A stretch of 64,000 nucleotides of DNA from an uncultured delta proteobacterium (GCA_963775425.1 CAVZJB010000009.1:272616-336615), one strand, 5' to 3'; shown: positions 3-63,708, numbered from the stretch's first letter. Numbers and translations: made by a program. Notes: generated by a model from the sequence alone, not told the origin.

Positions 3-1412
3 TGCACCCTGCCGCAGCTCGCCGAGATCGCGCGCAGCGGCGCGTTCCTCAACCGCGTCACCCTGTTCGGGAGCGAGGCGGCGGCGCGCGGCGTGTTCGC
101 CGCCATCCTCCTGCTGTTCGCGGGCGGGCTGCTCTACTACCTCTGGCGCGCCGGGCGCGATCCGCTCCTGCACGCGGCCGCCATCCTCTTCGCGCTCTCC
201 ACGCTCGCCAAGGGCCCCGTCGGCGTCGGCGTCTGCGGCCTCACGCTCCTGTGCACCATCGCCGTGCTCGGCGAGTGGGAGCGGATGCTGCGCCCGGCCG
301 CCGTCTCGTGCACCGCGCTGTTCCTCGCCATCTGCGCGCCGTGGCCCATCGTGATGACGTTCTTCACCGGGCTCGACGAGGAGCGAAAGACCTGGGTGCA
401 GCGCTTCATCTTCTACGACCTCCTCGGCCGCATCGGCCCCGGCGCCCACGGCGACCGCGGCTCGTTCAACTATTATGTGGAATACGCCGGCTTCGGCATG
501 TTCCCGTGGACGGGCCTGGTCCCGCCCGCGCTGTTCTCCGCCGCGGGCGCCCGCGCCGCGCCGCGAAACAAGGGCGAGCGCTTCACGGTGCTCGTCGCGC
601 TGTGGGCGGTGATCACCTTCGCCTTCTTCGCCGCCACGACGACCAAGTTCCACCACTACATCTTCCCGCTGTGCGTCCCCTGCGCGCTGCTCATCGGGCG
701 CTACCTCGACAAGCTGGTGTCCGAGCCCAAGCTGCGGGTGGCGCCGGTGGTGGCGTTCTTCGCGGTGACGCTGGCGGCGCTCATCGGCCGGGATCTCGTC
801 ACGGAGCCCTGGCAGCTCATCGACCTCTTCACCTACCACTACAAGAGCTACAAGCCTGCCTATTACTTCCCTTCAGATGAGGAGTGGCGGGTCGGTCTCA
901 GCATCGCGTGTTTTGGCGCCACCCTCGTCGTGGCCGCCGGCGCGGTGTGGGACATGGTGCGTCCGCCGCCGGAGGGCGAGCACAAGACCTGGCTCGGCTC
1001 GCTGGTCTTTTCCCGTCGCTGCGCCAGCGAGGGCTTCATCACCGCCTATCTCGCGGCTGCGATCTTGTTTGCGGTGTTTGCGGTGCAGGTCCACTTCAAC
1101 CGCGCCTCGCAGCACTGGAGCCAGCGCGAGATCTTCGATACCTACTATTCGATGAGAAAGGGTGACGAGCCCATCATCGCTTTCCAGATGGATTGGAAGG
1201 GTGAGACCTTCTACGGGAAGAACCAGGACATCCAGATCAAGCGCTCCGGCAGCGAGCTGAAGAAGGCCGTCGAGCGCCCGGGGCGCGAATTCGTCCTCGT
1301 CCAGACCGATCGCTACGGCAGCTTGAAGAGCGCGCTCGGCAAGGACTACGAATCACGCATCAAGGTCGTCGATCGAAGCAATCAAAAATGGTACCTGGTG
1401 CTGGTCGAGTGA
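3..1412 (+). CDS. ArnT/PMT-like (GT39-type) membrane glycosyltransferase, 5'-truncated by window edge
   Basis: The frame of ORF 93..1412 stays open back to position 3. Multi-TM hydrophobic N-terminal part plus soluble C-terminal domain. High third-position GC. The last ~15 codons show a GC3 drop. Confidence 0.55.
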   Translation, partial: CTLPQLAEIARSGAFLNRVTLFGSEAAARGVFAAILLLFAGGLLYYLWRAGRDPLLHAAAILFALSTLAKGPVGVGVCGLTLLCTIAVLGEWERMLRPAAVSCTALFLAICAPWPIVMTFFTGLDEERKTWVQRFIFYDLLGRIGPGAHGDRGSFNYYVEYAGFGMFPWTGLVPPALFSAAGARAAPRNKGERFTVLVALWAVITFAFFAATTTKFHHYIFPLCVPCALLIGRYLDKLVSEPKLRVAPVVAFFAVTLAALIGRDLVTEPWQLIDLFTYHYKSYKPAYYFPSDEEWRVGLSIACFGATLVVAAGAVWDMVRPPPEGEHKTWLGSLVFSRRCASEGFITAYLAAAILFAVFAVQVHFNRASQHWSQREIFDTYYSMRKGDEPIIAFQMDWKGETFYGKNQDIQIKRSGSELKKAVERPGREFVLVQTDRYGSLKSALGKDYESRIKVVDRSNQKWYLVLVE

Positions 1413-1422
1413 CGGGCCGCGC

Positions 1423-2106
1423 TCAATACGGCATGGCTTGCGCGTCGGGGTGGCCGGGGGAGAGGAAGCCGGGCGCGCCGGTGCCGTCGTCGCCGTCGTG
1501 CTTCTTCTCGGCGGTGAGGGCGTAGGAGACGGGGACGGCGGCGACGCCGACGGCCGCGACGGCGGCGCCGGCCACGACGAGCCCGTAGAGCGCGGGATCG
1601 CCGGCGCCGCCGCCGCCGCCGCCGGCGAGGAGGGTGTAGAGCGTGGCGGCGCTGACGACGCCTGCGACGGCGGCGACGTACGACGCGACGACGGGCCAGA
1701 GCGCGGGCGCGCGGCTCGGGCCGAGCCGATCGCCGAGGATGGTGGCGGCGTAGCCGCTGGCGGCTGGCAGCAGGCACGCGACGCAGGCGCCGCCGGGCAC
1801 CACGGCGGCGATGATCAGCGCGCAGGGCATGCCGACGACGCTGACGCTGCAGGGCACGAGCGCTTGCAGGCACCCCACGAGGACGGGGTCGAGGGGCGCC
1901 GGCGCTCTCCGCTCGTCCGGCCGCACGGGCCGCGGCCGCGGTGTCGGTGTCGGTGTCGGTGTCGACGCCGGCGGCGGGGCGCGCGCCGCGGGGACGCGCT
2001 CCGAAGACCCATCGAGCAACGGCGGCGGCGGCGGCAGTGGATCGACCGGGGTCGCTCCGACCGGGGCCTGGGCCAACGCGGCGACCGTGACGACCAGCCC
2101 GAGCAC
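1423..2106 (-). CDS. hypothetical membrane/secreted protein with (TP)n proline-rich linker
   Basis: N-terminal signal-like hydrophobic segment, PPPPP and TPTPTPTP linker encoded by a (GTGTCG)n repeat, C-terminal hydrophobic region. Convergent with the upstream gene. Confidence 0.45.
   Translation of the reverse strand: MLGLVVTVAALAQAPVGATPVDPLPPPPPLLDGSSERVPAARAPPPASTPTPTPTPRPRPVRPDERRAPAPLDPVLVGCLQALVPCSVSVVGMPCALIIAAVVPGGACVACLLPAASGYAATILGDRLGPSRAPALWPVVASYVAAVAGVVSAATLYTLLAGGGGGGAGDPALYGLVVAGAAVAAVGVAAVPVSYALTAEKKHDGDDGTGAPGFLSPGHPDAQAMPY
1921..1965. repeat. (GTGTCG)n hexanucleotide tandem repeat (encodes TPTPTP on the minus strand)
   Basis: gtgtcggtgtcggtgtcggtgtcg seen directly. Confidence 0.6.
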
Positions 2107-2198
2107 GGCGCCACTCTACCTGCCTGCGCGCCATGGCGCCCGTCACTACGACCTTCCGACGCCGCGGCTATCATCGAGCGACGTCCGCGAGGTTCTTC

Positions 2199-3140
2199 AT
2201 GAGCGACCAGAGATGTGAAAACTGCGGCTGTGGGCTCGGCGACGCCGCTGCGTGTCCCGCGTGTGGCCTCGCGCGCATCGGCGCCAGCGTCGGCGCCGTC
2301 GCCGAGAGGCGCTACGACGTCGCGCCGCTCCCCGCCGGCCCCTACGAAGTGGAGCTCGGCATCGGCGACACGCTCTCGTGGACGTTCAAGATGTGGTGGG
2401 ACAACCTGCCGCGCCTCATGGCGCTCGGCTTCGTGCCGTACGCCCTCATGTTGCCGTTCGTCATCCTGGGCGGCGGGCTCGCGCTCAGCCCGCGCTGGGC
2501 CGAAGAGCTGTTCAGCCCGCAAAACCTCGTGTGGCTGGTGCCCGCGGGCTGCGTGCTCTTCGTGGTCTTCATCGTCGCCGGCCTGAGCGCGGCGGGGGGC
2601 GTCGTGCACCTGGTCGACGAGCAGCAGCACGGGGTGCGCGTCGGCGCCTTCGCCGCGCTCCTGACGGGGGCCCGCCACGTCGGGTGGCTCGGCCTCGGGT
2701 GGCTGCTCTTCTCGGCGCTCATGATCTTCGCCGTGGCCGGCCCCGCGCTCCCCATCGCCGTCGCCCTGGATCGCTCGGAGGCGCAAACGGCGCTGTTCGC
2801 GCTCCCGGGTCTCGCCACCGTCGTCGTCGCCATGGTGATCGGCGCGCGCCTCGCGCCCGCGTTCCCGGCGATCATCGTCGAGGACATCGGGCTCGGGCAG
2901 GCGATGTCGCGCGCCTGGTCGTTGACGCGCGGCCGCACGCTGACCGTGCTCGGCGCGTCGGTGCTGTTCATGGTGGCCTACTTCGCCATGAGCATGACGG
3001 CCGGCCTGGTGGGCATCGTGCCCATCCTCGGGCTGGTCGCGCAGCTCGCCATCTCGGCGATGATGGCGCCGCTCACCTACGTCTTTCCGTTCGCCGTCTA
3101 CGCCGGCTGCGTCCGCGCCGAGCAGCGCGCTCAGCGGTAG
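2199..3140 (+). CDS. hypothetical polytopic membrane protein with N-terminal zinc-ribbon (CENCGCG...CPACG)
   Basis: ATG at residue 23 of ORF 2133..3140 (MSDQRCENCGCG). Two CxxC pairs, then about 6 TM segments. High GC3. Confidence 0.55.
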   Translation: MSDQRCENCGCGLGDAAACPACGLARIGASVGAVAERRYDVAPLPAGPYEVELGIGDTLSWTFKMWWDNLPRLMALGFVPYALMLPFVILGGGLALSPRWAEELFSPQNLVWLVPAGCVLFVVFIVAGLSAAGGVVHLVDEQQHGVRVGAFAALLTGARHVGWLGLGWLLFSALMIFAVAGPALPIAVALDRSEAQTALFALPGLATVVVAMVIGARLAPAFPAIIVEDIGLGQAMSRAWSLTRGRTLTVLGASVLFMVAYFAMSMTAGLVGIVPILGLVAQLAISAMMAPLTYVFPFAVYAGCVRAEQRAQR

Positions 3141-3562
3141 ATCGCCGCCCAGCCCGCCGGGTCCTTGAACAGCCGCACGCAGCGGATGGTCTTTTTGTCC
3201 GTGAGCTCGAAGCGGTGGTGTTTGCCCTTGGGGACGACGATCAGGTCGCCGGGCTCCACCACCACGCGCATCCACCTGTCGTCGTTGCTGCGGATGTCGA
3301 AGACGCCCTCGCCCTCGAGGACGAAGCGCACCTCGTCATCGTCGTGGTGGTGCTCCGGATCGAACTTGGCGAGCAGGCCCTCGAGGTTCGCCGTGTCGGG
3401 GCGCAGGGCCACCTCGTCCTGCGTGATGTAGCCGCGGCGCTTGGTGAGCTCGTCGAGCGCGGGCTGGTGCGCGCCGAGGGGCAGGTCGCGATAGATGACA
3501 CCGTTTTCCTCGAGGAGGTTCCCGTCGATGGCCTCGTTGGTGTCGCGGAAGAAGGCTCTCAT
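3131..3562 (-). CDS. mtnD: acireductone dioxygenase (1,2-dihydroxy-3-keto-5-methylthiopentene dioxygenase), cupin
   Basis: MRAFFRDTNE...HHHDDDEVRF...KGKHHRF cupin His cluster typical of ARD. The ATG overlaps the mtnB stop (ATGA). Confidence 0.85.
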   Translation of the reverse strand: MRAFFRDTNEAIDGNLLEENGVIYRDLPLGAHQPALDELTKRRGYITQDEVALRPDTANLEGLLAKFDPEHHHDDDEVRFVLEGEGVFDIRSNDDRWMRVVVEPGDLIVVPKGKHHRFELTDKKTIRCVRLFKDPAGWAAIYR

Positions 3563-14482: not shown

Positions 14483-15691
<1,209 letters not shown>

Positions 15692-15839
15692 AAGGCTGAC
15701 GAAAAGCAAGGCTCGTAGCAGCACTCGGCGAAGCCGCCCACAAGGTGGCTCGCCGCGCGGAGTACGTGGCGAGGCACGTCGGCGCGCAAGAACCGCTTCG
15801 CGCCGCTTGTGTCACGCGCCTTCGCGGCGCGGGCCGCGT

Positions 15840-16171
15840 GCGCCGCATCGGAGATCTCCGGATTGTCGGCATCGGCGAGCACCGCGAGGACATCGGTGAG
15901 GAGCTTGTCGAACGCGGCGCGGTGATCGACGCGGAACCTGGCGAGGACGTCATGACTCGGGCGCAGATCGCCGACGATAAAACGGAAGGCGTCGTCGTTC
16001 GTCGTCAGCCGCGCGATCTCCCGGCCGCTCCCGATCCCTTGGCCTATCGCGTACAGCCACAGCGTCAGGAGCATCCGCGGGCTCGTCATCGGGCGCCCAC
16101 GTGAACCCGTCGAGGTCGAGCACACGGTCGATCAGGCGAGCCGGGTGCTCGGGGCCGATGAGGTCGTCCAC
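15840..16171 (-). mobile_element. IS5/IS1182-family transposase N-terminal remnant (frameshifted, DDE domain missing)
   Basis: Two overlapping frames read LIGPEHPARLIDRVLDLDGF and PRMLLTLWLYAIGQGIGSGREIARLTTNDDAFRFIVGDLRPSHDVLARFR, matching the InsH-type N-terminal region. No catalytic domain follows. Confidence 0.6.
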
Positions 16172-45709: not shown

Positions 45710-47662
45710 GTGTGCGGCATCGTCGCCGTCCTGCGCCTCGGCGAGCGTCCGCTGCCCGGGGACGACGCGGTACGCGCGATGACCCGAGCCATCGCTCACC
45801 GCGGCCCCGACGGCGAAGGCTTCCATCGCGACGACGACGTCGCGCTCGGCGTGGTGCGGCTGGCGGTCGTCGACGTCGGGCACGGGCGGCAGCCGGCGCG
45901 CGGCTGCCGCGGCGCCGGGCCCGTGTCCGTCGTGAACGGCGAGCTCTACGAGCACCGCCCGCTGCGCGCGGAGCTCGCCGCGCGGCACGAGATCGTCGAC
46001 GCGTGCGACGCCACGCTGCTGCCGCATTTGTACGAGGACCACGGCGCCAACATGGTGCTGCACATGCACGGCATGTTCGCCTTTGCGCTGTGGGACCGGC
46101 GCGAGCGCACGCTGCTCCTCGGCCGCGACCGCCTCGGCATCAAACCGCTCTTCTTCGCCGTCACGCCCGACTTCCTCGTTGCTGCGTCGGAGGCAAAGGC
46201 GATCTTCGCCTCCGGCCTCGTCCAGCCGCGCATCGATCGCGACGCCGTCGACGACCTCTTCTCCCTGGGGTACCCGTGCCCGCCGCGCACGATGTTCGCC
46301 GGCGTCACTGCGGTGCCCCCGGGGCACACGGTGACGGCTCGCGCGGGCGGCGGCGCACAGCGAGGCCGCGTCGACGCCGCTCGCCGCTACTGGCGCGCGC
46401 CGCTGTCTCCGCCGGCGCACACCGGCCAACGAGGGTCGCCCGCGGGGTCGGCCGCCGACGTCCACGACGCCCTCGCCGCCGCCTTGCGCACGCACCTCGA
46501 CGCCGACGTCCCCGTGGCCACGTGGCTGTCCGGAGGGCTCGACTCGTCCGCGGTCTCGGCGCTCGCGCGCGAGGCCGCCGGCGCGCCGCTCCCCGCGTTC
46601 GCGCTCACGTTCCCGGGAGACCCCGAGGGGCTCGACGAGAGCGCACCCGCGCGCGCCGTCGCCCGCTTCCTCGGCGCGGACCTGGACGAGGTGCCCATGG
46701 GAGCTCCGGCGGCTTCGTTGCTCGAGCGCATGACGTGGCACCTCGAGCTCCCGCTCCTCGTCCCCGGCGCGCTCGGCGGCCTCCTGCTCTCCGAGCGGCA
46801 GCGCGCGCGAGGCTTCAAGGTCACGCTCACCGGCGACGGTGCCGATGAGGTGCTCGGCGGCTACGACGTGTTTCGCGCGAGCCGCGCGCGCCGGCTCCTC
46901 GGGGCGCGCGCGTTCTCCGCCGCCGTCGTCGCGGGCGACGCGCTCGGCCTCCTCTCGCCGCGCGGCATCGGTGCGTTCCTCGCGCAAAACGCCCGCGCGC
47001 CACGGACGGACATCGTCGCCCGCGCGTACGGCGGCGTGCGCCCACCCTGGCTCGAGCAGTGGGCGCTCCTCGACGTCGAGCGCGCGGCGCTCCTGTCGCC
47101 CGACGGCAGGCGCGTGCGCCCGATCGAAGAGGCGCCCGCGGGCTTCGCCGCTTTGGTGCGCGAGGACGCCGTCGCGCTCGATCCGCTCGACGCCGAGATC
47201 GCGCTGGAGCTGGAGACGCGCCTGCCCGCGTGGATCCTGGTCATCGGTGATCGCTCATCGATGGCCCACGGGGTCGAGGCCCGCTTGCCGTTCCTCGACG
47301 ACGACGTCGTGCGCACGCTCCTCGCCGTCCGGCCGGCGCTGAAGATGCGCGGGATGCGCGAGAAGGCCGTGCTGCGCGACGCCGTCGCGGGGCTGCTGCC
47401 GCGCGCCATCGTGCGGCGCAGGAAGCAGCCGTTCATGACGCCGATCGCGCCGTGGTTCTTCCCGCCGGGAGCTACGCCGCCCGCCCTGACGCGCGCGCGG
47501 CTCGAGGACGCCGGGCTGTTCGACGCCGCCGTCGTCGCGCGGCTCCTCACGCGTCTGCACACCTCGCGCCCCGGGACGCTCGAGCGCGTCCGGCTGGAGA
47601 TGGTGCTGATGCTCGTCCTCGGGACGCAGCTCCTGCACGCGTCTTTCGTGGCCAGGGCTTAG
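45710..47662 (+). CDS. asnB: asparagine synthetase (glutamine-hydrolysing), AsnB family
   Basis: GTG-Cys start (V/MCGIVAV) for the N-terminal nucleophile. SGGLDSS PP-loop. Conserved C-terminal synthetase domain. Confidence 0.85.
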   Translation: MCGIVAVLRLGERPLPGDDAVRAMTRAIAHRGPDGEGFHRDDDVALGVVRLAVVDVGHGRQPARGCRGAGPVSVVNGELYEHRPLRAELAARHEIVDACDATLLPHLYEDHGANMVLHMHGMFAFALWDRRERTLLLGRDRLGIKPLFFAVTPDFLVAASEAKAIFASGLVQPRIDRDAVDDLFSLGYPCPPRTMFAGVTAVPPGHTVTARAGGGAQRGRVDAARRYWRAPLSPPAHTGQRGSPAGSAADVHDALAAALRTHLDADVPVATWLSGGLDSSAVSALAREAAGAPLPAFALTFPGDPEGLDESAPARAVARFLGADLDEVPMGAPAASLLERMTWHLELPLLVPGALGGLLLSERQRARGFKVTLTGDGADEVLGGYDVFRASRARRLLGARAFSAAVVAGDALGLLSPRGIGAFLAQNARAPRTDIVARAYGGVRPPWLEQWALLDVERAALLSPDGRRVRPIEEAPAGFAALVREDAVALDPLDAEIALELETRLPAWILVIGDRSSMAHGVEARLPFLDDDVVRTLLAVRPALKMRGMREKAVLRDAVAGLLPRAIVRRRKQPFMTPIAPWFFPPGATPPALTRARLEDAGLFDAAVVARLLTRLHTSRPGTLERVRLEMVLMLVLGTQLLHASFVARA

Positions 47663-47820
47663 GGCCCCCGAATGAACAACTCGATCGCCCTCGCGGCCGA
47701 TCCATCGCCGCTGGCTTCGTTGCTCGTCGGTCACGTGGCGACGGCCACGCTCCCTCCTCGCGCCTCGCCATCGGCGCGCCTCGACCGCGATCATCGACCG
47801 ACTTGTTCATTCGAGGGCCC
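47663..47820. mobile_element. MITE-like non-autonomous element: about 158 bp, 17-18-bp terminal inverted repeats (GGCCCCCGAATGAACAA / TTGTTCATTCGAGGGCCC) flanked by direct TTAG
   Basis: Seen directly between the convergent asnB and NRPS stops. The interior is also partly self-complementary. A TTAG (YTAR) duplication would fit an IS5-family target. Confidence 0.5.
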
Positions 47821-47828
47821 TTAGCCCT

Positions 47829-50800
47829 CTAGATCGCGTCGGCCGCGCCGACGTCGGCCTGCGGGGCGGCGGCGAGGGAGCGCGGACGCGCGGGGCGCTT
47901 GTCGACGACCTCGTCGATGAGGCCCGTGATGCACGTGGCCATGCGCTCGATGTTCTCGCTCCGAAACAGCTCGAGGTGCGAGCCCTTCACCGTGACGACG
48001 TCGATGCGACCCTTGACCCAGCGGCGCCAGCCGTTGGTGGGATCGTCCATGCGCGTGGCCGGCCAGCGGAAGGGATGCTCGGCGACAAAGAGCAGGAGCG
48101 GCGCCGTCTCTCCGTTCTGTTTGGGCATGTACGCGAGCTGGGCCTGCGTGAGGATGGCCCAGATCTGCTTCATGCGATCTTCGCGCTCACGGTCGGCGCC
48201 GTCGACGGCGGGCGCGAGCAGCTCGCCGAGGCCGAGCTTGAAGAGCAAGCGGCGGCGCACGTTGTCGATGCGATCCTTCACGTAGTTGAAGCGGCCCAAG
48301 GCGTCACGCCTGCGCAGCTCCTCGACATGCGCGAGCGCGCGCTCCATGCGCGGAAGCTTCTCGGGATAGCCGGGCGCGAAGGCGTCGAACGCGACGATGG
48401 CGCCGACGTTCTTCCCGCGCCGGCGCAGCCGGTGCGCGAGCTCGTAGGCGACCATGGCCCCGAAGCTGTAGCCGCCGACGACGAGCTGCTGCCCCGACAG
48501 CCCGCGCGCGTCGAGCTCGCGCTCGTAGGCCGCGGCGATCTCCTCGACCGACTCGCGTGGCAGGTCTTCGCCGTCGGCGCCGATGGCGGTGAAGGCGTAG
48601 ACGGGTTGATCGGGCCCGAGCCGCTGCGCGAGCTCGCGAAAGATGAACACCTGGCCGCCCGCGCCGGACACGATGAGCAGCGGCGGGCGCGTCCCGTGCG
48701 CGTTCAACACGACGAGGTGGCTCTGCGGCTCGGACGTCGCGCGCTCGCCGTCGCCGAGGCTCTGCGCGAGCGCGGCGATGGTGGGCTTCGCCAGGATGCG
48801 CGACAGCGGGACGTTGATGCCCAGCTCCTTCTTCAGCCGCGACACCACCACGACCGCGAGCAGCGAGTGGCCGCCCATGTCGTCGAAGAAGTCGTCGTGA
48901 ACACCCACCGGCGCGCGCAAGACGTCGCTCCACAGGGCGACGAGCTTCTCCTCGAGCGGGGTGCGCGGTGGGGACAGCGCGCGCCGCTCGAGGACGAGCG
49001 CCGGATCAGGGAGCGCCGCGCGGTCGAGCTTGCCGTTGGAGGTGACCGGCAGGCGGTCGAGCCGCACCAGGGCCGAAGGCACCATGAAGTCCGGCAGCGC
49101 CGCAGCCACCGCCGCCTTCAACGACGGCGCGTCGAAGGGCTGCGCCGCATGGAGCGGCACGACGTACGCCACCACGGCCTTCGCGCCGGAGGCGTCGGGG
49201 CGCGCGACGCACACGACGTCGCGCACGCCGGGCTGCTTGCGCAGCACGGCTTCGATCTCGCCGAGCTCGACGCGGAAGCCGCGCACCTTCACCTGGAAGT
49301 CGGCGCGCCCGAGGAACTCCATGGTGCCGTCGTCCCAGAAGCGCGCGAGGTCGCCCGTCTTGTAGATGCGCTCGCCCGGGAGGAACGGATCGGGGAGGAA
49401 CCGCTCGGCGGTGAGCTCCTCGCGGTTGAGGTAGCCGTCGGCGAGGCAGAGGCCGCCGATGTAGAGGTCGCCGGCGATGCCGGTGGGCGCCGGGCGCATG
49501 TGGCGATCGAGGATGTAGTAGCGGGCGTTGTCGATGGGACGGCCGTAGGGGATGGAGCGCCACGACGGGTCTACGTGGCCGATGCGGTGGAAGTTCGACC
49601 AGATGGCGGCCTCGGTGGCGCCGCCGAACGACACGGGTTCCACACCCTCGAACACCTCGCGCAGGTGGTCGGGCAGCTTGACCGGGATCCAGTCGCCGGA
49701 CATGAGCGCGAGCCGCAGCGTCGACGACGGCGCGCGCGCCGGAAAGAACGGCGCGAGCCGCGCCAGCGCCGGCGGCGCGGAGTCCCAGATGGTGATGCCG
49801 GGCGCGGTGAGCTTCTTCACCAGGAGCTCCGGCTCGCGCAGCGTCTCCACCGAAGCGATCTCGACGACGGCGCCGGCGCCGAGCGCGCCGAAGACGTCGT
49901 AGACGGACAGGTCGAAGCTCGGGGACGTGACGAACAAGAGCTTGTCGCGCGGGCCGACGCTGAAGGTGCGGTTCACCCACTGCAGCGTGTTCGTCACCGC
50001 GCGGTGCGTGAGCACCACGCCCTTGGGCCTGCCGGTGCTGCCCGACGTGTAGATGGCGTAGCTCACGTCCCTCGAGGCGGCGACGCGCGCGGGCCGGGTG
50101 TCGGGAGCGCCCTGCACGTCCGCGCCGTCGACGCCCAGGATGGGGATGCCCGGCGGCGGCGCGCCGTCGCCGTGGCCCCACGGCAGCGACGACGACGTCA
50201 CCACCGCCACCGCTCGCGCGTCTTCGACCATGAAGCGCGCGCGCTCTTCGGGGTAGCCCGGGTCCACGGGCACATATGCCGCACCGGACTTGGCGATGCC
50301 GATCATCGTGGTGACGAGGTCGAAGTTGCGGTCGAGCAGGAACGCCACGTATTGGCCGGGCTTCACCCCGCGGGCGCGCAGCGCGTGGGCGAGGCGGTTG
50401 GCGCGCCGCTCCACCTCGGCGAAGGTGAGCGTCTCTCCCTCGAATTCCAGGGCGACGTCGTCAGGCCGCGCGTCCACCTGCTCCTCGAAGAGCGTGTGGA
50501 TGAGGATCTCGTCTGAAAACGGCGCGGCCGTGTCGTTCCAGCCGAAGACCTGCCGCTTGCGGGTCTCGTCGTCGAGGAGGTCGACGCGCGCGAGGGGCTT
50601 TTCGGGATCCGCCGCGACCTGCGCGCACACCGCGGAGATCTGCTCCACCAGCGCGCGCACGCGGGGCGTGTCGACCGCGCCTTCGTCGACGACGAGCGAC
50701 GCCTGTCCGCCGCTCAGGCGCAGCGCCAGGACCGCGCCCGGCGGGAGGGCCTCGCCGTCGTCGAGCAGGACGGCCACGCACGACAGCGCGCTCGTCTGGA

Positions 50801-52202
50801 GCGCGCGGCTGGGGGAGAGCACAGGGGTACGCGCGACGAGGTCGACGAGGTAGCCGCCGCGGCGGCGGAGCTCGTCGAGGTCCTTTCGCACCGCGCGCAC
50901 CAGCTCCGCGAAGCCGCGCCCCGCGTCCAGGCCGACGAACAACGGGACGGTGGGCGCCAACAAGGCCGAGGCGGCTTCGAAGCGCTTGCGCACGGGGCCG
51001 TCTACGAGGGCGACGCACAGCTCGTCGCGGTCGCACAGCGTGGCCATGGCGAAGGAGAACGCGGCGGTGGCTGCGGCCTCGATGTCATCGGCGAAGCGCG
51101 AGCGCAGCTCGGGCAGGGGGAGCGAGTGCACCGACGTTTGTCCCGGCGGCCCCGCCGCCGACAAGAACGGCACCGCCGGCGACTCCGCGCGCGCGAGGCG
51201 CTTGACGAAGAACGGCTCGGCCTCGGCGATCTCGCGGGTGATCGCCGCGCGGCCCTCGCGTCCGGGATCGACGATCTGTCCACCGGGCTTGAGTCCCAGG
51301 TAGTGCAGCGCCTCCTCGACGGAGATCTCGACTCCGCTCAGGAGCGACGTCCGCTCCACGCGCAGCGCCCCCTGGGCGCACGCCACCACGAAGGAGCGGG
51401 CGTCGGCCTCGAGGACGGTGCCCGGGCCCCCGCCCGCGCCGGACACCGACGCCTCACGCACGACCACCGCGCGCTCCCCCGCCGACGTCTTGTGCACGAG
51501 CTTGGCGAGGGCGAAGCGGTTGATGTACGGGCCCCAGTCGCAGGCGCGCACGAGCCGGTCGAGCTCGGCGGCCGTCTGGCTCCAGTCGAGAGTGGCCAGG
51601 GCCGCGGGGCGATCGTGACGCGAGAAGATCAGCCGCTCGCCGCCGGGGTTCGTCCCCTTCGGCTGGGGGATGCCCGGCGGCGCGCCGTGCTCGAGCTTCT
51701 CGACGAGAGACTTGAAGGCGTCGAGCGCGAGCGCGGCGTTCTTGATGTTGAGGGAGACGGAGCTCTCGCGCTCCTCGATGTCGACGTCGCGGCGCTCGAG
51801 GATGTCGCCGGTGTCGATGCCGTCGGCGAGGCGATGCCACACCACGGCGTGCGTGCGCTCGCCGCGCAGGAGCGCCCACGCCGAGCCGTGAATGCCCGCG
51901 TAGCGGGGCAGCGGTCCGTCGTGGAAATTGACGGCGTCGATGCGCGCCTTGGTGAAGTGCTCGGCCTTGAGGATGGCGGGGTACGTGATGGACAAGAGGA
52001 CGTCGATGTCGCCGGCGGCCATGAGCTCACCGATGCGCGCGCGCCCGTAGACCGGCACGTCCTTGCCCCGCGCCCACTCGGCGAGGGCCGGGTTGAGCGT
52101 GACGAGGCCGGCGAGGGCGTGCCCCCGCTCCAGGAGGAGCTCGCCGCACGAGACGGCGAGCGGCTCTTCTCCGAGGACGAGGCAGCGAAGGTGCGCGGGC
52201 AC
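47829..52202 (-). CDS. single-module non-ribosomal peptide synthetase: formyltransferase (F) - degenerate C-like region - A - T(PCP) - TE
   Basis: N-terminus Fmt-like (NFHDGPLPRYAGIHGSAWALLRGERTHAVVWHRLADGIDTGDIL). A-domain cores (YTSGSTGRPKGV, FDLSVYD, YKTGDL, GRADFQVKVRGFRVELGEIE, LPVTSNGKLDR). PCP FFDDMGGHSLLAV. TE GYSFGAMVAYE. Confidence 0.9.
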   Translation of the reverse strand: MPAHLRCLVLGEEPLAVSCGELLLERGHALAGLVTLNPALAEWARGKDVPVYGRARIGELMAAGDIDVLLSITYPAILKAEHFTKARIDAVNFHDGPLPRYAGIHGSAWALLRGERTHAVVWHRLADGIDTGDILERRDVDIEERESSVSLNIKNAALALDAFKSLVEKLEHGAPPGIPQPKGTNPGGERLIFSRHDRPAALATLDWSQTAAELDRLVRACDWGPYINRFALAKLVHKTSAGERAVVVREASVSGAGGGPGTVLEADARSFVVACAQGALRVERTSLLSGVEISVEEALHYLGLKPGGQIVDPGREGRAAITREIAEAEPFFVKRLARAESPAVPFLSAAGPPGQTSVHSLPLPELRSRFADDIEAAATAAFSFAMATLCDRDELCVALVDGPVRKRFEAASALLAPTVPLFVGLDAGRGFAELVRAVRKDLDELRRRGGYLVDLVARTPVLSPSRALQTSALSCVAVLLDDGEALPPGAVLALRLSGGQASLVVDEGAVDTPRVRALVEQISAVCAQVAADPEKPLARVDLLDDETRKRQVFGWNDTAAPFSDEILIHTLFEEQVDARPDDVALEFEGETLTFAEVERRANRLAHALRARGVKPGQYVAFLLDRNFDLVTTMIGIAKSGAAYVPVDPGYPEERARFMVEDARAVAVVTSSSLPWGHGDGAPPPGIPILGVDGADVQGAPDTRPARVAASRDVSYAIYTSGSTGRPKGVVLTHRAVTNTLQWVNRTFSVGPRDKLLFVTSPSFDLSVYDVFGALGAGAVVEIASVETLREPELLVKKLTAPGITIWDSAPPALARLAPFFPARAPSSTLRLALMSGDWIPVKLPDHLREVFEGVEPVSFGGATEAAIWSNFHRIGHVDPSWRSIPYGRPIDNARYYILDRHMRPAPTGIAGDLYIGGLCLADGYLNREELTAERFLPDPFLPGERIYKTGDLARFWDDGTMEFLGRADFQVKVRGFRVELGEIEAVLRKQPGVRDVVCVARPDASGAKAVVAYVVPLHAAQPFDAPSLKAAVAAALPDFMVPSALVRLDRLPVTSNGKLDRAALPDPALVLERRALSPPRTPLEEKLVALWSDVLRAPVGVHDDFFDDMGGHSLLAVVVVSRLKKELGINVPLSRILAKPTIAALAQSLGDGERATSEPQSHLVVLNAHGTRPPLLIVSGAGGQVFIFRELAQRLGPDQPVYAFTAIGADGEDLPRESVEEIAAAYERELDARGLSGQQLVVGGYSFGAMVAYELAHRLRRRGKNVGAIVAFDAFAPGYPEKLPRMERALAHVEELRRRDALGRFNYVKDRIDNVRRRLLFKLGLGELLAPAVDGADREREDRMKQIWAILTQAQLAYMPKQNGETAPLLLFVAEHPFRWPATRMDDPTNGWRRWVKGRIDVVTVKGSHLELFRSENIERMATCITGLIDEVVDKRPARPRSLAAAPQADVGAADAI

Positions 52203-59989: not shown

Positions 59990-60366
59990 GGTTGCGGTCG
60001 CCCGGCGCGCGCGACCGCCTCTTCGAACGCCTCGGCGATCGGGTTGAAGGTGCGACGCGCGTCGTCGAGGGCGGCGCGGTCGCCGCGCAACGAGACGTAG
60101 AGCCGGGTGAGAACGAAGCCGTAGACGTCGTCGAGCATGGTGCACAGCTCGGGGGCCTTCGACGGATCGAGCGTGGACCGGAGCTCGTGCACGATGTCGA
60201 TGGCCTTGCGCACCGGCGTCGCCGCCTGCGCGGCGCGACCGAGGGCGAGCTCGCCGTCGGCGAGGAACATCTGCTTGCGCGCACCCGCGAGCAAGAGGAG
60301 CAGCACGCGCTCCTTCGACGCAGTGGCCGTCTGAGTTTCTTGATAGCGCGCCGACGGCAACATCAC
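59986..60366 (-). CDS. fliS: flagellar export chaperone FliS
   Basis: RYQETQTATASKERVLLLLLAGARKQMFLADGELALGRAAQAA...IDIVHELRSTLD matches FliS. ATGA overlap with fliD. Confidence 0.8.
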   Translation of the reverse strand: MMLPSARYQETQTATASKERVLLLLLAGARKQMFLADGELALGRAAQAATPVRKAIDIVHELRSTLDPSKAPELCTMLDDVYGFVLTRLYVSLRGDRAALDDARRTFNPIAEAFEEAVARAGRPQP

Positions 60367-61700
60367 CCACCTCCGTTGTTCTTGCTCGCGGTCTCCTGGC
60401 TGGTGAGGAAGTTGCCGATGGCCTTCAGGCCGCTCAGCACCTTCTCCATCGCCGCGAACTGCGCGACGAGTCGCGCGCGGTACTGATCCGCGCGGTCCTG
60501 CAGTTGCGTGATCTGATCGCCGACGCGCTTCTTCTTGTCCGCGAGGCCCTGGCTGCGCACCGTGAGCGCGCCGTTGACCGAGTCGGTGAACGCGTTGACG
60601 AGGTCGTCGGCGGCGGGCTTGAGCCCGGCGAGGATGCGATCGGCGGCGCCGGGATCCGACGCGACCGCCTTGTCGAACGCCGCGTCGTCGATGGTGACCT
60701 TGCCGTCGCGGTCGCTCTTGAGCCCCAGGTCCGCGAGCGTACGCATCCCGGTCGAGCCCACCGCCGTCGTCAACAGCGCCTGCATGCGCGCCTGCACCAG
60801 GCGCATGGTGGGGTCGCCGCCGAGGGTCTTCGTGCGGTCCGTGTTGGCGTGGATGTCGAGCTCACCCTGCACCGCGCCGACGATGGTGTTGTAGGCGTCG
60901 ACGAGCTTCTGCAGCGAGGCTTTGGTCTGGTCGCCGTCGTCGGCGATGACGATGTCCTCGGGACCGGTGCTGACCTGTTTGAGCGAAAGCGTGGCGCCGG
61001 GGAGGGCGTCGTCGATCTCGTTGGTGCGGCGCTCGAAGGCGAGGCCGTCGAGGGTGAGCTTGGCGTTTTGCGCCGTCACCACCGTCGAGAAGCCGAGCGC
61101 GTCGGCGGTGGTCCCCGAGAGCGTGAGGGCGCTGTCGGGCGTGGAGCCGACCTCGAAGCCCGACGTCGTGCGCGCCACGCTCAGGTAGTCGCTGGTGCCG
61201 TCGTTGAGGACGTTGGCGGTGACGGGCGCGCCGCTCGCGCGGATGGCGGAGGCGAGGTCACCGAGGCTCATGCCGTCGGTCACGTCGATGTCGTAGCCGG
61301 TGCCGTCGGCGTCGATGTGCAGCGTGCCTGCCGACAGGAGGGCCGACGTGCTCTGCGCCGCGCTCCGGCTCTTGGCCGCTTGCGCGAGCTGCGAGACCTC
61401 GAGGGTGGTGCGGCCGGCGCTCGCGCCGGGGGACGCGGTGACGTCGGCGGCGGCGGGCGCCTGCGCGACGCGCGCGCCGTGCGCGCCGGTGTCGACGAGA
61501 CCGTGGAGCGCGGTCTGGAAGGCGAGGAGGTTCGAGCGGAGCGACCCGATCGACGAGATCTGCACGTCGATGGCGGTCTGGCTCTGCTGGAGGGTGGCGA
61601 TCGGCTTGCTTTGCAGAGAGACGAGCTGATCCACGATGGACGCGGTGTCGATCCCGGACGCGAGGCCGCTCGCTTGGAATGACGGAATCGTCGTGGACAT
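60363..61700 (-). CDS. fliD: flagellar filament cap protein FliD (hook-associated protein 2)
   Basis: MSTTIPSFQASGLASGIDTASIVDQLVSLQ N-terminus and C-terminal coiled-coil segments typical of FliD. Confidence 0.85.
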   Translation of the reverse strand: MSTTIPSFQASGLASGIDTASIVDQLVSLQSKPIATLQQSQTAIDVQISSIGSLRSNLLAFQTALHGLVDTGAHGARVAQAPAAADVTASPGASAGRTTLEVSQLAQAAKSRSAAQSTSALLSAGTLHIDADGTGYDIDVTDGMSLGDLASAIRASGAPVTANVLNDGTSDYLSVARTTSGFEVGSTPDSALTLSGTTADALGFSTVVTAQNAKLTLDGLAFERRTNEIDDALPGATLSLKQVSTGPEDIVIADDGDQTKASLQKLVDAYNTIVGAVQGELDIHANTDRTKTLGGDPTMRLVQARMQALLTTAVGSTGMRTLADLGLKSDRDGKVTIDDAAFDKAVASDPGAADRILAGLKPAADDLVNAFTDSVNGALTVRSQGLADKKKRVGDQITQLQDRADQYRARLVAQFAAMEKVLSGLKAIGNFLTSQETASKNNGGG

Positions 61701-61778
61701 GGCGCTCTCCAAGAGGGGTGAACGAGGACGAAGCCGCCGCACGGATCACCCGGGTCCGTGCGGCGGCTTCAGGAGCGC

Positions 61779-62831: not shown

Positions 62832-63708
62832 CAGCTTGTCGAGGATGGTGAGCTGGAAGCTCTTGGCGCTCACGGTCAGCGCGGCGTCGAGCGAGCGCTC
62901 GGCGAACGCGAGAATCCGTCGCCGCCTTCGCGATGTCGGCGTCGGTCAGGCCGGCGCGCCTGCCGTCGGCCGCGTCCGCCACGTCGCCCGCGGCGGTCTG
63001 CGCGGCGTCCAGGCCGAGCTCGATGCCGCCGGCGTCGGCGCGGCCGGCGCCGACCTGCGCGATGCCCGAGCGCAGCGTGTCGATGCTCGCGCGCAGCCCC
63101 GTGGTGTCGTTGGTGGACAGCGCGGTGGCCAGGTCGCCGAGGGCCTGGAGGACGTCGACGCCGCCGCCGGCGCCCTTGATGACGACGTCGGCGCGCACGG
63201 ACACGCCCTGCACCACGCCGGGCGCGACCTCGATCTGCCGGACGCCGGCGTCGCCGGTGTAGCTGCCGTCGGCCTGGAACGGGGCCGCGTTGTCGACGGT
63301 GCCGCCCATGACGAAGCGGCCGCCGACGTCGATGTTCAACGCGCTCACGGCTTCGGCCAGCATCTGCGTCGCCTGGCTCGCGGCGCTCGCGCGATCCGCG
63401 CTGTTGTAGGTGCCGTTCGACATCTGGATCGCGAGCTGCTGCGCGCGCGAGAGCGTGTTGATCACCGACGACAGCGCGCCGTCGGCGGCGTTGACGTCGT
63501 CAAGCGCCCGTGACGTCGTGGTCGAGATGCCCGAAGCGCGCACCGCGGCGAAGCGCTCGCGCGCGATCTGCCCCGCGGAGTCCGTCTCCCAGGGGTGCCG
63601 CACGGAGACGCCGGTGGAGGCGCGGTCGGTGGCCTTCTCGTAGCGCTCGCGCGCGGTCTGCGTCGCGGCGTTCGCGTTGGCGAAGATGGAGCTATCAGTG
63701 ACGCGCAC
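62832..63708 (-). CDS. flgL: flagellar hook-associated protein 3 FlgL, disrupted by 1-nt insertion near the 3' end
   Basis: N-terminus MRVTDSSIFANANAATQTAR. After ...AKAATD the listed ORF reads junk (SRVRRALARRR...), but removing one T at gat|t|ctc gives the canonical C-terminus LAFAERSLDAALTVSAKSFQLTILDKL* ending at about 62832. Confidence 0.8.

Follow-up and report, generated by a model that had tools for sequence, protein, structure and literature searches.

Within a 64-kb stretch of DNA (here called the window, meaning the whole stretch that was analysed), an asnB-like gene on the plus strand and an NRPS-like gene on the minus strand converge on a short and strongly self-complementary sequence. 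The initial annotation took this sequence for a miniature inverted-repeat transposable element (MITE) with TTAG on both sides, which would fit IS5-family targeting and, if transcribed, would act as a strong bidirectional terminator or insulator. The locus raises the questions of whether the sequence is mobile DNA, which transposase would have moved it, and whether its hairpin has a role of its own. The parts of the locus, numbered from the first letter of the window, are as follows:

45710..47662, plus strand: asnB-like asparagine synthase gene (GTG start, MCGIV...; Pfam Asn_synthase and GATase_7)
47659..47661, no strand: left copy of the target-site duplication (TSD), TTA on the plus strand and TAA in the canonical orientation; read off the sequence
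47662..47820, minus strand: MITE of 159 bp; its canonical orientation is the minus strand of the window, GGGCCCTCGAATGAACAAGTCGGTCGATGATCGCGG...
47662..47687, minus strand: 3' terminal inverted repeat (canonical orientation), which reads GGGCCCCCGAATGAACAACTCGATCG on the plus strand
47692..47790, minus strand: interior hairpin module (model R2, 90.8 bits, E = 8e-13, minus strand only)
47735..47748, minus strand: apical stem-loop, GTGGCCGTCGCCAC on the minus strand; the variable tip of the family
47795..47820, minus strand: 5' terminal inverted repeat (canonical orientation), GGGCCCTCGAATGAACAAGTCGGTCG
47821..47823, no strand: right copy of the TSD, TTA; read off the sequence
47829..52202, minus strand: single-module NRPS-like gene (formyltransferase-like, A, PCP and TE by Pfam; the start given is the ORF limit only)

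The flanking genes were as initially annotated, with Asn_synthase and GATase domains on the plus strand and an NRPS on the minus strand. The 650-aa asnB-like product was a 100% match to the protein P0001, and its best AsnB homolog apart from P0001 was 62% identical. Between the two genes, a repeat finder located arms of 34 nt (47654-47687 and 47795-47828; 88% complementary, spacing of 107 nt), and 17 of the 18 terminal nucleotides of the element itself were complementary, so that the annotated inverted repeat was borne out at its place; these termini were kept across the family described below. The 18-nt end GGGCCCCCGAATGAACAA has its first base at 47662, and the last base of its near-complement TTGTTCATTCGAGGGCCC is 47820. 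With up to 3 mismatches allowed, GGGCCCCCGAATGAACAA had exactly two matches in the 64-kb window, one per strand at the ends of the element, compared to a chance expectation of 0.03. RNA folding gave -97.3 kcal/mol for the plus strand (z = -6.7) and -126.9 kcal/mol for the minus strand (z = -10.8), in line with the claim that the interior is self-complementary. Given the complementarity of its arms, the rarity of the 18-mer and the z-scores of the folds, the hairpin is a genuine feature that chance would hardly produce.

The edges of the element (GGGCCC...GGGCCC) were fixed by comparison within the family, and its canonical orientation was defined by a family alignment (A1) of the window copy and 15 copies from other genomes. 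By these boundaries, the right edge at 47820 was retained from the original description, while the element starts at 47662 rather than 47663 and measures 159 bp rather than 158 bp. The TTAG flanks dissolved likewise: the duplication is the 3-bp TTA, the left G is base 1 of the element, and the right G belongs to the flank. Since the inverted repeat of the window extends 5 to 6 nt past the TSD (AGGGC at 47654-47658 and GCCCT at 47824-47828), these outermost nucleotides represent a palindromic target site and not element sequence. The palindrome AGGGC-TTA-GCCCT is probably due to chance or to a small preexisting hairpin; a preference for palindromic targets was considered and discarded, as 40 reconstructed targets (see below) had only background complementarity beyond the S-TWA-S consensus. 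No transposase gene is present in the 159-bp element, and tblastn with the partner transposase described below gave no match in the window. One reading frame runs through the element without a stop, as part of a mechanical 87-aa ORF (47547-47810, minus strand) antisense to the 3' end of the asnB-like gene. This is the only ORF that touches the element, and its start is an ATG included in the terminal repeat (GAATGAACAAG, read as M N K...). At another locus (L033, 2920-3267), an MscS-like ORF takes its start codon from the ATG in what remains of a terminal repeat.

Elsewhere in the window, a perfect hairpin with a 17-bp stem (AAGCCGCCGCACGGATC ACCCG GGTCCGTGCGGCGGCTT, 61731-61769) adjoins the end of an ORF at 60363-61742; scored as a candidate family copy, it turned out to be an unrelated short hairpin (20 bits, E = 0.14), and a further candidate at 63441-63543 was noise (E of ~0.6). 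The segment 24001-28000 has a G+C content of 0.79 to 0.81, compared to ~0.71 elsewhere, and contains very long overlapping ORFs on both strands. An ORF at 14483-15691 (plus strand) has N-terminal GEGEGE/GEGDVT repeats, which are mirrored as SPSPSP in a frame of the opposite strand.

To what extent the sequence is dispersed was assessed with its end sequence GGGCCCNCGAATGAACAA, which was scanned against one genome per species. The scan returned 39 loci, of which ~25 were family members on reading, nearly all from Myxococcota-type metagenome-assembled genomes (MAGs), and the others were lone chance matches in unrelated taxa. Carriers included Kofleriaceae JAGPCY01 (10 contigs), "Myxococcales" JAHFDT01 (4), Baikal SHYY01 (3), JADZDP01 (2) and Haliangiales; the NCBI taxonomy places Kofleriaceae within Polyangia/Haliangiales. 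The Kofleriaceae MAG contained four identical copies of 159 bp. Copies in bins outside the Myxococcota were an interrupted one assigned to Thiohalocapsa (L031) and a truncated one assigned to Acidimicrobiia (L028), on short contigs. A scan of metagenomes with the end sequence yielded at least 120 stretches. Among the matches listed, homologous copies of 157 to 196 bp occupied 64 distinct flanked sites in Myxococcota MAGs and metagenomes. In the units of this family, the match to the end sequence starts the unit, the inverted end sequence closes it, and the whole aligns over its full length to the minus strand of the window. With a covariance model built on 16 copies (R1; the model R2 was built from the interior only), the minus strand of the window copy scored 157.7 bits (E = 9e-27) and its plus strand 59.4 bits. 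Neither R1 nor the end-sequence search found a second copy in the 64-kb window. The window copy was 81 to 85% identical to its nearest relatives, and in view of this divergence it may be old and immobile. Many of the fetched copies lay at contig ends, as expected of repeats. Composite arrangements were also seen: at two loci (L002, 2363-2617; L133, 4217-4575), two elements have one TTA in common, and at a third (L073, 2215-2523) the interior is duplicated within a unit of 309 bp. Being dispersed over 64 sites listed elsewhere, with TSDs and conserved inverted termini but without a transposase gene, the family corresponds to the MITE initially proposed.

The flanks of these copies also revealed the length of the duplication. 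Perfect 3-bp direct repeats were present at 40 of the 64 unique sites among the matches listed (TTA, 26; TAA, 13; TAT, 1), and where both flanks were TTA or TAA, they matched at 39 sites and differed at 6. The 40 sites gave the target consensus S-TWA-S, with C or G before TWA in 37 cases and G or C after it in 33. The family thus shows a 3-bp TWA duplication, and not the 4-bp YTAR/TTAG duplication that had been suggested.

A candidate for the enzyme was found between the same ends. Locus L063 carries a complete 1,333-bp element, TTA/GGGCCCGCGAATGAACAAGTCGATCGAT...GATTTGTTCATTCGCGGGCCC/TAA, with a 404-aa ORF that belongs to PF07592 (DDE_Tnp_ISAZ013; E = 2e-132). Together with those in L085 and L067, full ISAzo13-type insertion sequences of 1,331 to 1,339 bp have the same terminal repeats as the MITE; the transposases of L085, L067 and L108 are 78 to 80% identical and are bounded by the same ends. 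In L005, the end sequence follows ~45 nt after the C terminus of an ORF truncated at the contig end, which resembles thousands of PF07592 proteins (ISAzo13, "Rhodopirellula transposase"). Diverged remnants retrieved by exact protein look-up end ...CCATTCGAGGGCCC, ...GATTCCCAGGCCC/TTA and ...CCCATTCGCGAGCCC/TTA just past the stop codon, with the common pattern ...CATTCG.G.GCCC/TTA. The left end of the insertion sequence equals the consensus 5' end of the MITE family over 28 nt (copies in L019 and L029) and is unrelated beyond; the 5' end of the window copy is identical to the left end of the L063 element at 22 of the first 24 nt. The three full-length myxobacterial insertion sequences are flanked by TTA...TAA in two cases and by TTG...TTA in one, without clean direct repeats, and a distant ISAzo13 element in Mesorhizobium plasmids has TAA...TAA flanks at two different sites. 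No ISAzo13 transposase was detected by tblastn within the 64-kb window. The MITE is thus allied to the ISAzo13 family (PF07592) by ends of ~24 to 28 bp that match 1.33-kb elements at five loci (L063, L085, L067, L108 and L005), whose flanks are compatible with a TWA target, but unlike these elements it lacks a transposase gene and has an interior dissimilar to the insertion sequence beyond ~28 nt per end. The best explanation of the locus, to which we assign a probability of roughly 0.85 on the basis of sequence comparison, is that of a MITE of Polyangia/Haliangiales-type Myxococcota that bears ISAzo13 ends, would have been moved in trans and would have landed on the TTA at the stop codon of the asnB-like gene. 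An ISAzo13-family DDE transposase would cut the S-TWA-S target and duplicate the 3-bp TWA. In the literature searched, we found neither a myxobacterial or Sorangium MITE of this kind nor an ISAzo13-derived MITE.

The position of the element relative to its neighbors is consistent with this route. The TAG stop of the asnB-like gene (47660-47662) is composed of the TA of the duplication and the first G of the element, as the original description of an element exactly between two stop codons would have it on this side; on the other side, the stop of the NRPS-like gene (47829-47831, CTA on the plus strand) lies 8 nt past the element and 5 nt past the duplication. The NRPS-like gene is codirectional with the canonical strand of the element. 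When the element and one TTA are removed, the window reads GGCCAGGGCTTAGCCCTCTAGATC, in which the TAG of the asnB-like gene is intact and 4 nt from the NRPS stop; the empty site expected at the asnB-NRPS junction is GGGCTTAGCCCTCTAG, with a single TTA. The window copy would thus have inserted at a TTA overlapping the asnB-like TAG, in a 4-nt gap between convergent stops. Because the element begins with G, TAG would be restored after insertion, and more generally a start with G combined with a TWA duplication would restore TAA or TAG. Both flanking proteins would remain unchanged.

A similar placement recurred across the family. Long open frames with high GC3 and GC1 exceeding GC2 were used to call gene context, a procedure that misses genes in a MAG of 62 to 65% G+C; GC3 alone had been given up, as it does not separate sense from antisense frames. 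At ~21 to 24 of the 64 sites (about a third), a long coding-like ORF with GC frame bias had its stop in the junction. Of these junction stops, 15 use the duplicated TAA, 6, including that of the asnB-like gene in the window, use a TAG formed by TA and the first G of the element, and at a few sites the ORF stops at a TGA inside the terminal repeat (positions 12-14 or 28-30). Orientation relative to adjacent genes was unbiased (~20 codirectional versus 16 antisense), and copies also occurred between divergent genes (L004 and L032). In a genome of ~70 to 72% G+C, TTA or TAA sites that tolerate an insertion would largely be stop codons and their immediate surroundings.

What the hairpin itself contributes is a separate question. 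RNAalifold of 16 copies predicted one long hairpin with 53 consensus pairs, and compensatory double changes occurred in 13 of these. From the outside in, the interior begins with a stem, followed by a 2x2 purine internal loop that is conserved (CGA-GG-CGC / UG-GA-UCG), then by purine-rich tracts of the GAGGAG type and finally by the apical stem-loop, whose pairing is kept by compensatory changes across the family; one G:U pair (columns 44/166) is invariant in 16 of 16 copies. The canonical strand, which in the window is the sense strand of the NRPS-like gene, formed the more stable fold in 57 of the 58 unique copies, with a mean advantage of 21 kcal/mol. A MAFFT localpair alignment of 56 unique copies was gappy (346 columns) and was used for counts of pair types only. 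Its paired cells comprised 237 G:U versus 7 A:C, and 9 paired columns had at least 3 G:U, compared to none with at least 3 A:C, while singleton (recent) changes were balanced (~8 G:U versus 6 A:C). Neutral change of double-stranded DNA should produce the two mismatches at equal frequency, so that the older variants, common to several copies, seem to have been retained according to whether they pair on one strand.

As to termination, no terminator-like site was found between 47400 and 48100 on either strand. The sequences next to the hairpin are TAAGCCCTGG and TTAGCCCTCT, and since the stem lacks a trailing T-run in both directions, the strong bidirectional terminator of the initial annotation is not supported as a classical intrinsic terminator. 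Both convergent read-through transcripts would carry a hairpin of ~160 nt at their end, clearly more stable in the NRPS sense, which may protect or delimit transcript 3' ends. Searches of Rfam 15 gave only noise in the window region (MIR839, 17 bits, E = 1), and those of eight related loci gave only an artifactual match to the plant family MIR1437 (RF04159; 116 bits) in L047, caused by a perfect palindrome of ~2.2 kb (~1180-3400) that is an assembly artifact.

The interior proved not to be tied to one kind of terminus. R1, and R2 as well, detected elements with the shared interior between other ends at five loci:

L019, 4949-5104: terminal repeat GAGCCTGTGAGTGAATCCC, flanks TCA
L027, 4719-4879: terminal repeat GACCGACCTCACGTTAAGTTGA
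L047, 920-1079: terminal repeat AAGTACAGCTCCCCGTAAG
L023, 6374-6527: shared interior
L162, 1671-1827: terminal repeat GGCGCGTCCTCAAAATC, flanks CTAG

In all five, the same strand was the more stable one, by 11 to 21 kcal/mol. Conversely, GGGCCC-type ends enclosed other interiors at L003, L030, L034, L098 and L106. At L162 (~52-240), a chimera combines a GGGCCC-type left end with a GGCGCGCC-type right end, so that recombination within the shared interior is directly visible. This modularity of ends and interiors suggests recombination together with possible selection on the interior. At L027 (4719-5058), a GGGCCC-type copy and one bounded by other ends lie directly side by side.

One copy has itself been a target. 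In L031, the repeat is split after ...GGGCAAG by a segment of 1.7 kb and resumes at GCGCGAAC, with AG at both junctions (near 2148 and 425). The insert encodes a 456-aa protein (766-2136, minus strand) with DEDD_Tnp_IS110 and Transposase_20 domains. The break falls inside a conserved interior motif (GGCAAG/GCGCGA), and in two further copies (L028 and L035) a truncation or deletion lies at almost the same point. About 340 nt of noncoding DNA follow the IS110 ORF, and the flanks of the whole repeat themselves form a further inverted repeat of more than 45 nt. IS110-family elements are known to target REP sequences, as does IS621 in the REPs of Escherichia coli. The splitting of a repeat by an IS110-family element in L031 is a likeness to that system based on one clear case only; unlike the REP targets of IS621, the target here is the interior of a 160-bp MITE.

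Several other origins were weighed against an ISAzo13-derived MITE. An origin in the IS5 family, with TTAG (YTAR) as a 4-bp duplication and kinship to the IS5/IS1182 remnant of the window, would account for the TTAG legible on both sides and for an IS5/IS1182-type N-terminal transposase fragment at ~15.56-16.17 kb on the minus strand. A TWA duplication as such would also be compatible with it, since IS5 relatives (PIF/Harbinger and the IS1031 group) also make TNA/TWA duplications. The window family further resembles the Tourist/PIF-Harbinger MITEs of plants and the IS5-family groups with TNA/TWA duplications in its 3-bp TWA duplication and its G/C-rich termini starting GG(G)CC, and Tourist/PIF-Harbinger MITEs likewise outnumber their autonomous element; unlike in those, the transposase between the ends of the window family is of the ISAzo13 type, so that the likeness is behavioral only. 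The left G lies inside the element, the TSD is of 3 bp at 40 of 64 sites, and all transposases found between these ends were ISAzo13 (PF07592) and never DDE_Tnp_1/IS5; no IS5-type gene was found between GGGCCCGCGAATGAACAAG ends among 165 loci. The remnant (15559-16171) is a frameshifted N-terminal fragment with two stops in its joined frame and has no copy of the end sequence nearby, so that the supposed link to it falls away together with the IS5-family origin, which we consider very unlikely. An intergenic hairpin that evolved locally, for example as a bidirectional terminator, and has no mobile history would fit the very stable fold between convergent genes and the single copy within the window, but it is extremely improbable in the face of homologs at 64 unrelated sites among the matches listed, with different flanks and TSDs and partly between divergent genes, and of the absence of T-runs and terminator-like sites. 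Selection on a single-stranded DNA intermediate would produce the strand asymmetry in pairing, as in a REP/RAYT-like or HUH element transposed as a single strand. However, IS200/IS605 and REP elements have neither 3-bp TSDs nor long terminal inverted repeats in common with a DDE element, ~160 bp far exceeds a REP unit, and a Y1/HUH transposase was not noticed beside the copies examined, so that we give such an origin very little credence. The readings as attC, retron msd or REP/RAYT were dropped, as the copies are single and dispersed, with TSDs and DDE-type ends, and neither an integrase nor a reverse transcriptase was noticed next to those examined.

A further possibility adds to the ISAzo13-derived MITE rather than replacing it: the interior hairpin may be a selected, strand-specific single-strand module that rides on transposon ends, most likely as an RNA acting as a 3'-end stabilizer, an insulator or a protein-binding element. 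The near-uniform advantage of the canonical strand, the excess of G:U over A:C among older but not singleton changes, the invariant G:U pair and the conserved purine loop all speak for it, as do the chimera with two end types and the recurrence of an interior of ~100 nt, with the same strand favored, between at least five unrelated terminal repeats. Against it, the copies have no preferred orientation toward flanking genes, which makes a simple strand-specific function in the mRNA of a neighbor less plausible, and no promoter or terminator consensus and no match to an Rfam family was found. Moreover, owing to the common descent of the copies, few independent events underlie the asymmetry; the module's own purine-rich loops contribute part of the energy gap, and intrastrand repair or gene conversion can also yield compensatory changes in palindromes. 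On balance, selection of this kind is possible, but we think it rather unlikely. The extended version, in which a portable module selected at the single-strand, probably RNA, level sits on at least six sets of ends, serves as a specific landing site for an IS110-family recombinase of the bridge-RNA type and, as a functional RNA element of 3' ends, uses MITEs as its vehicles, is an even more tentative proposal from sequence comparison.

With the ISAzo13-derived MITE as the preferred reading, the family can be placed among known elements. Correia/NEMIS (Neisseria), ERIC/IRU (enterobacteria and Yersinia), RUP (pneumococcus) and bcr1 (Bacillus cereus group) are transcribed MITEs that form long hairpins, and it is reported for bcr1 that G:U pairs along with compensatory changes point to structure at the RNA level. 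Like the window family, Correia, ERIC, RUP and bcr1 are 100 to 200 bp in length, end in inverted repeats and have short duplications rich in A/T, and they occur in many copies at gene ends or in intergenic regions, with the whole element forming one hairpin. The window family differs in its Myxococcota host, its sequence, its ISAzo13 partner and its 3-bp TWA duplication (versus TA in that group), and also in having an interior in common with elements that have unrelated ends. Its closest counterparts in working are hairpin MITEs of the Correia, ERIC, RUP and bcr1 type, and the closest in lineage is ISAzo13.

The attribution links a MITE to the little-studied ISAzo13 family, for which the present data define the ends and the S-TWA-S target. 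The family, and probably its sister families too, would account for many assembly breaks in Myxococcota MAGs and in biosynthetic gene clusters, and it would also explain many of the "orphan" hairpins at gene ends in Myxococcota. If the interior is indeed a selected RNA, it would represent functional cargo common to unrelated MITE families. In a genome of ~70% G+C, an element specific for TWA would be funneled to stop codons, which would provide a simple path to harmless insertion even in tight gaps between genes.
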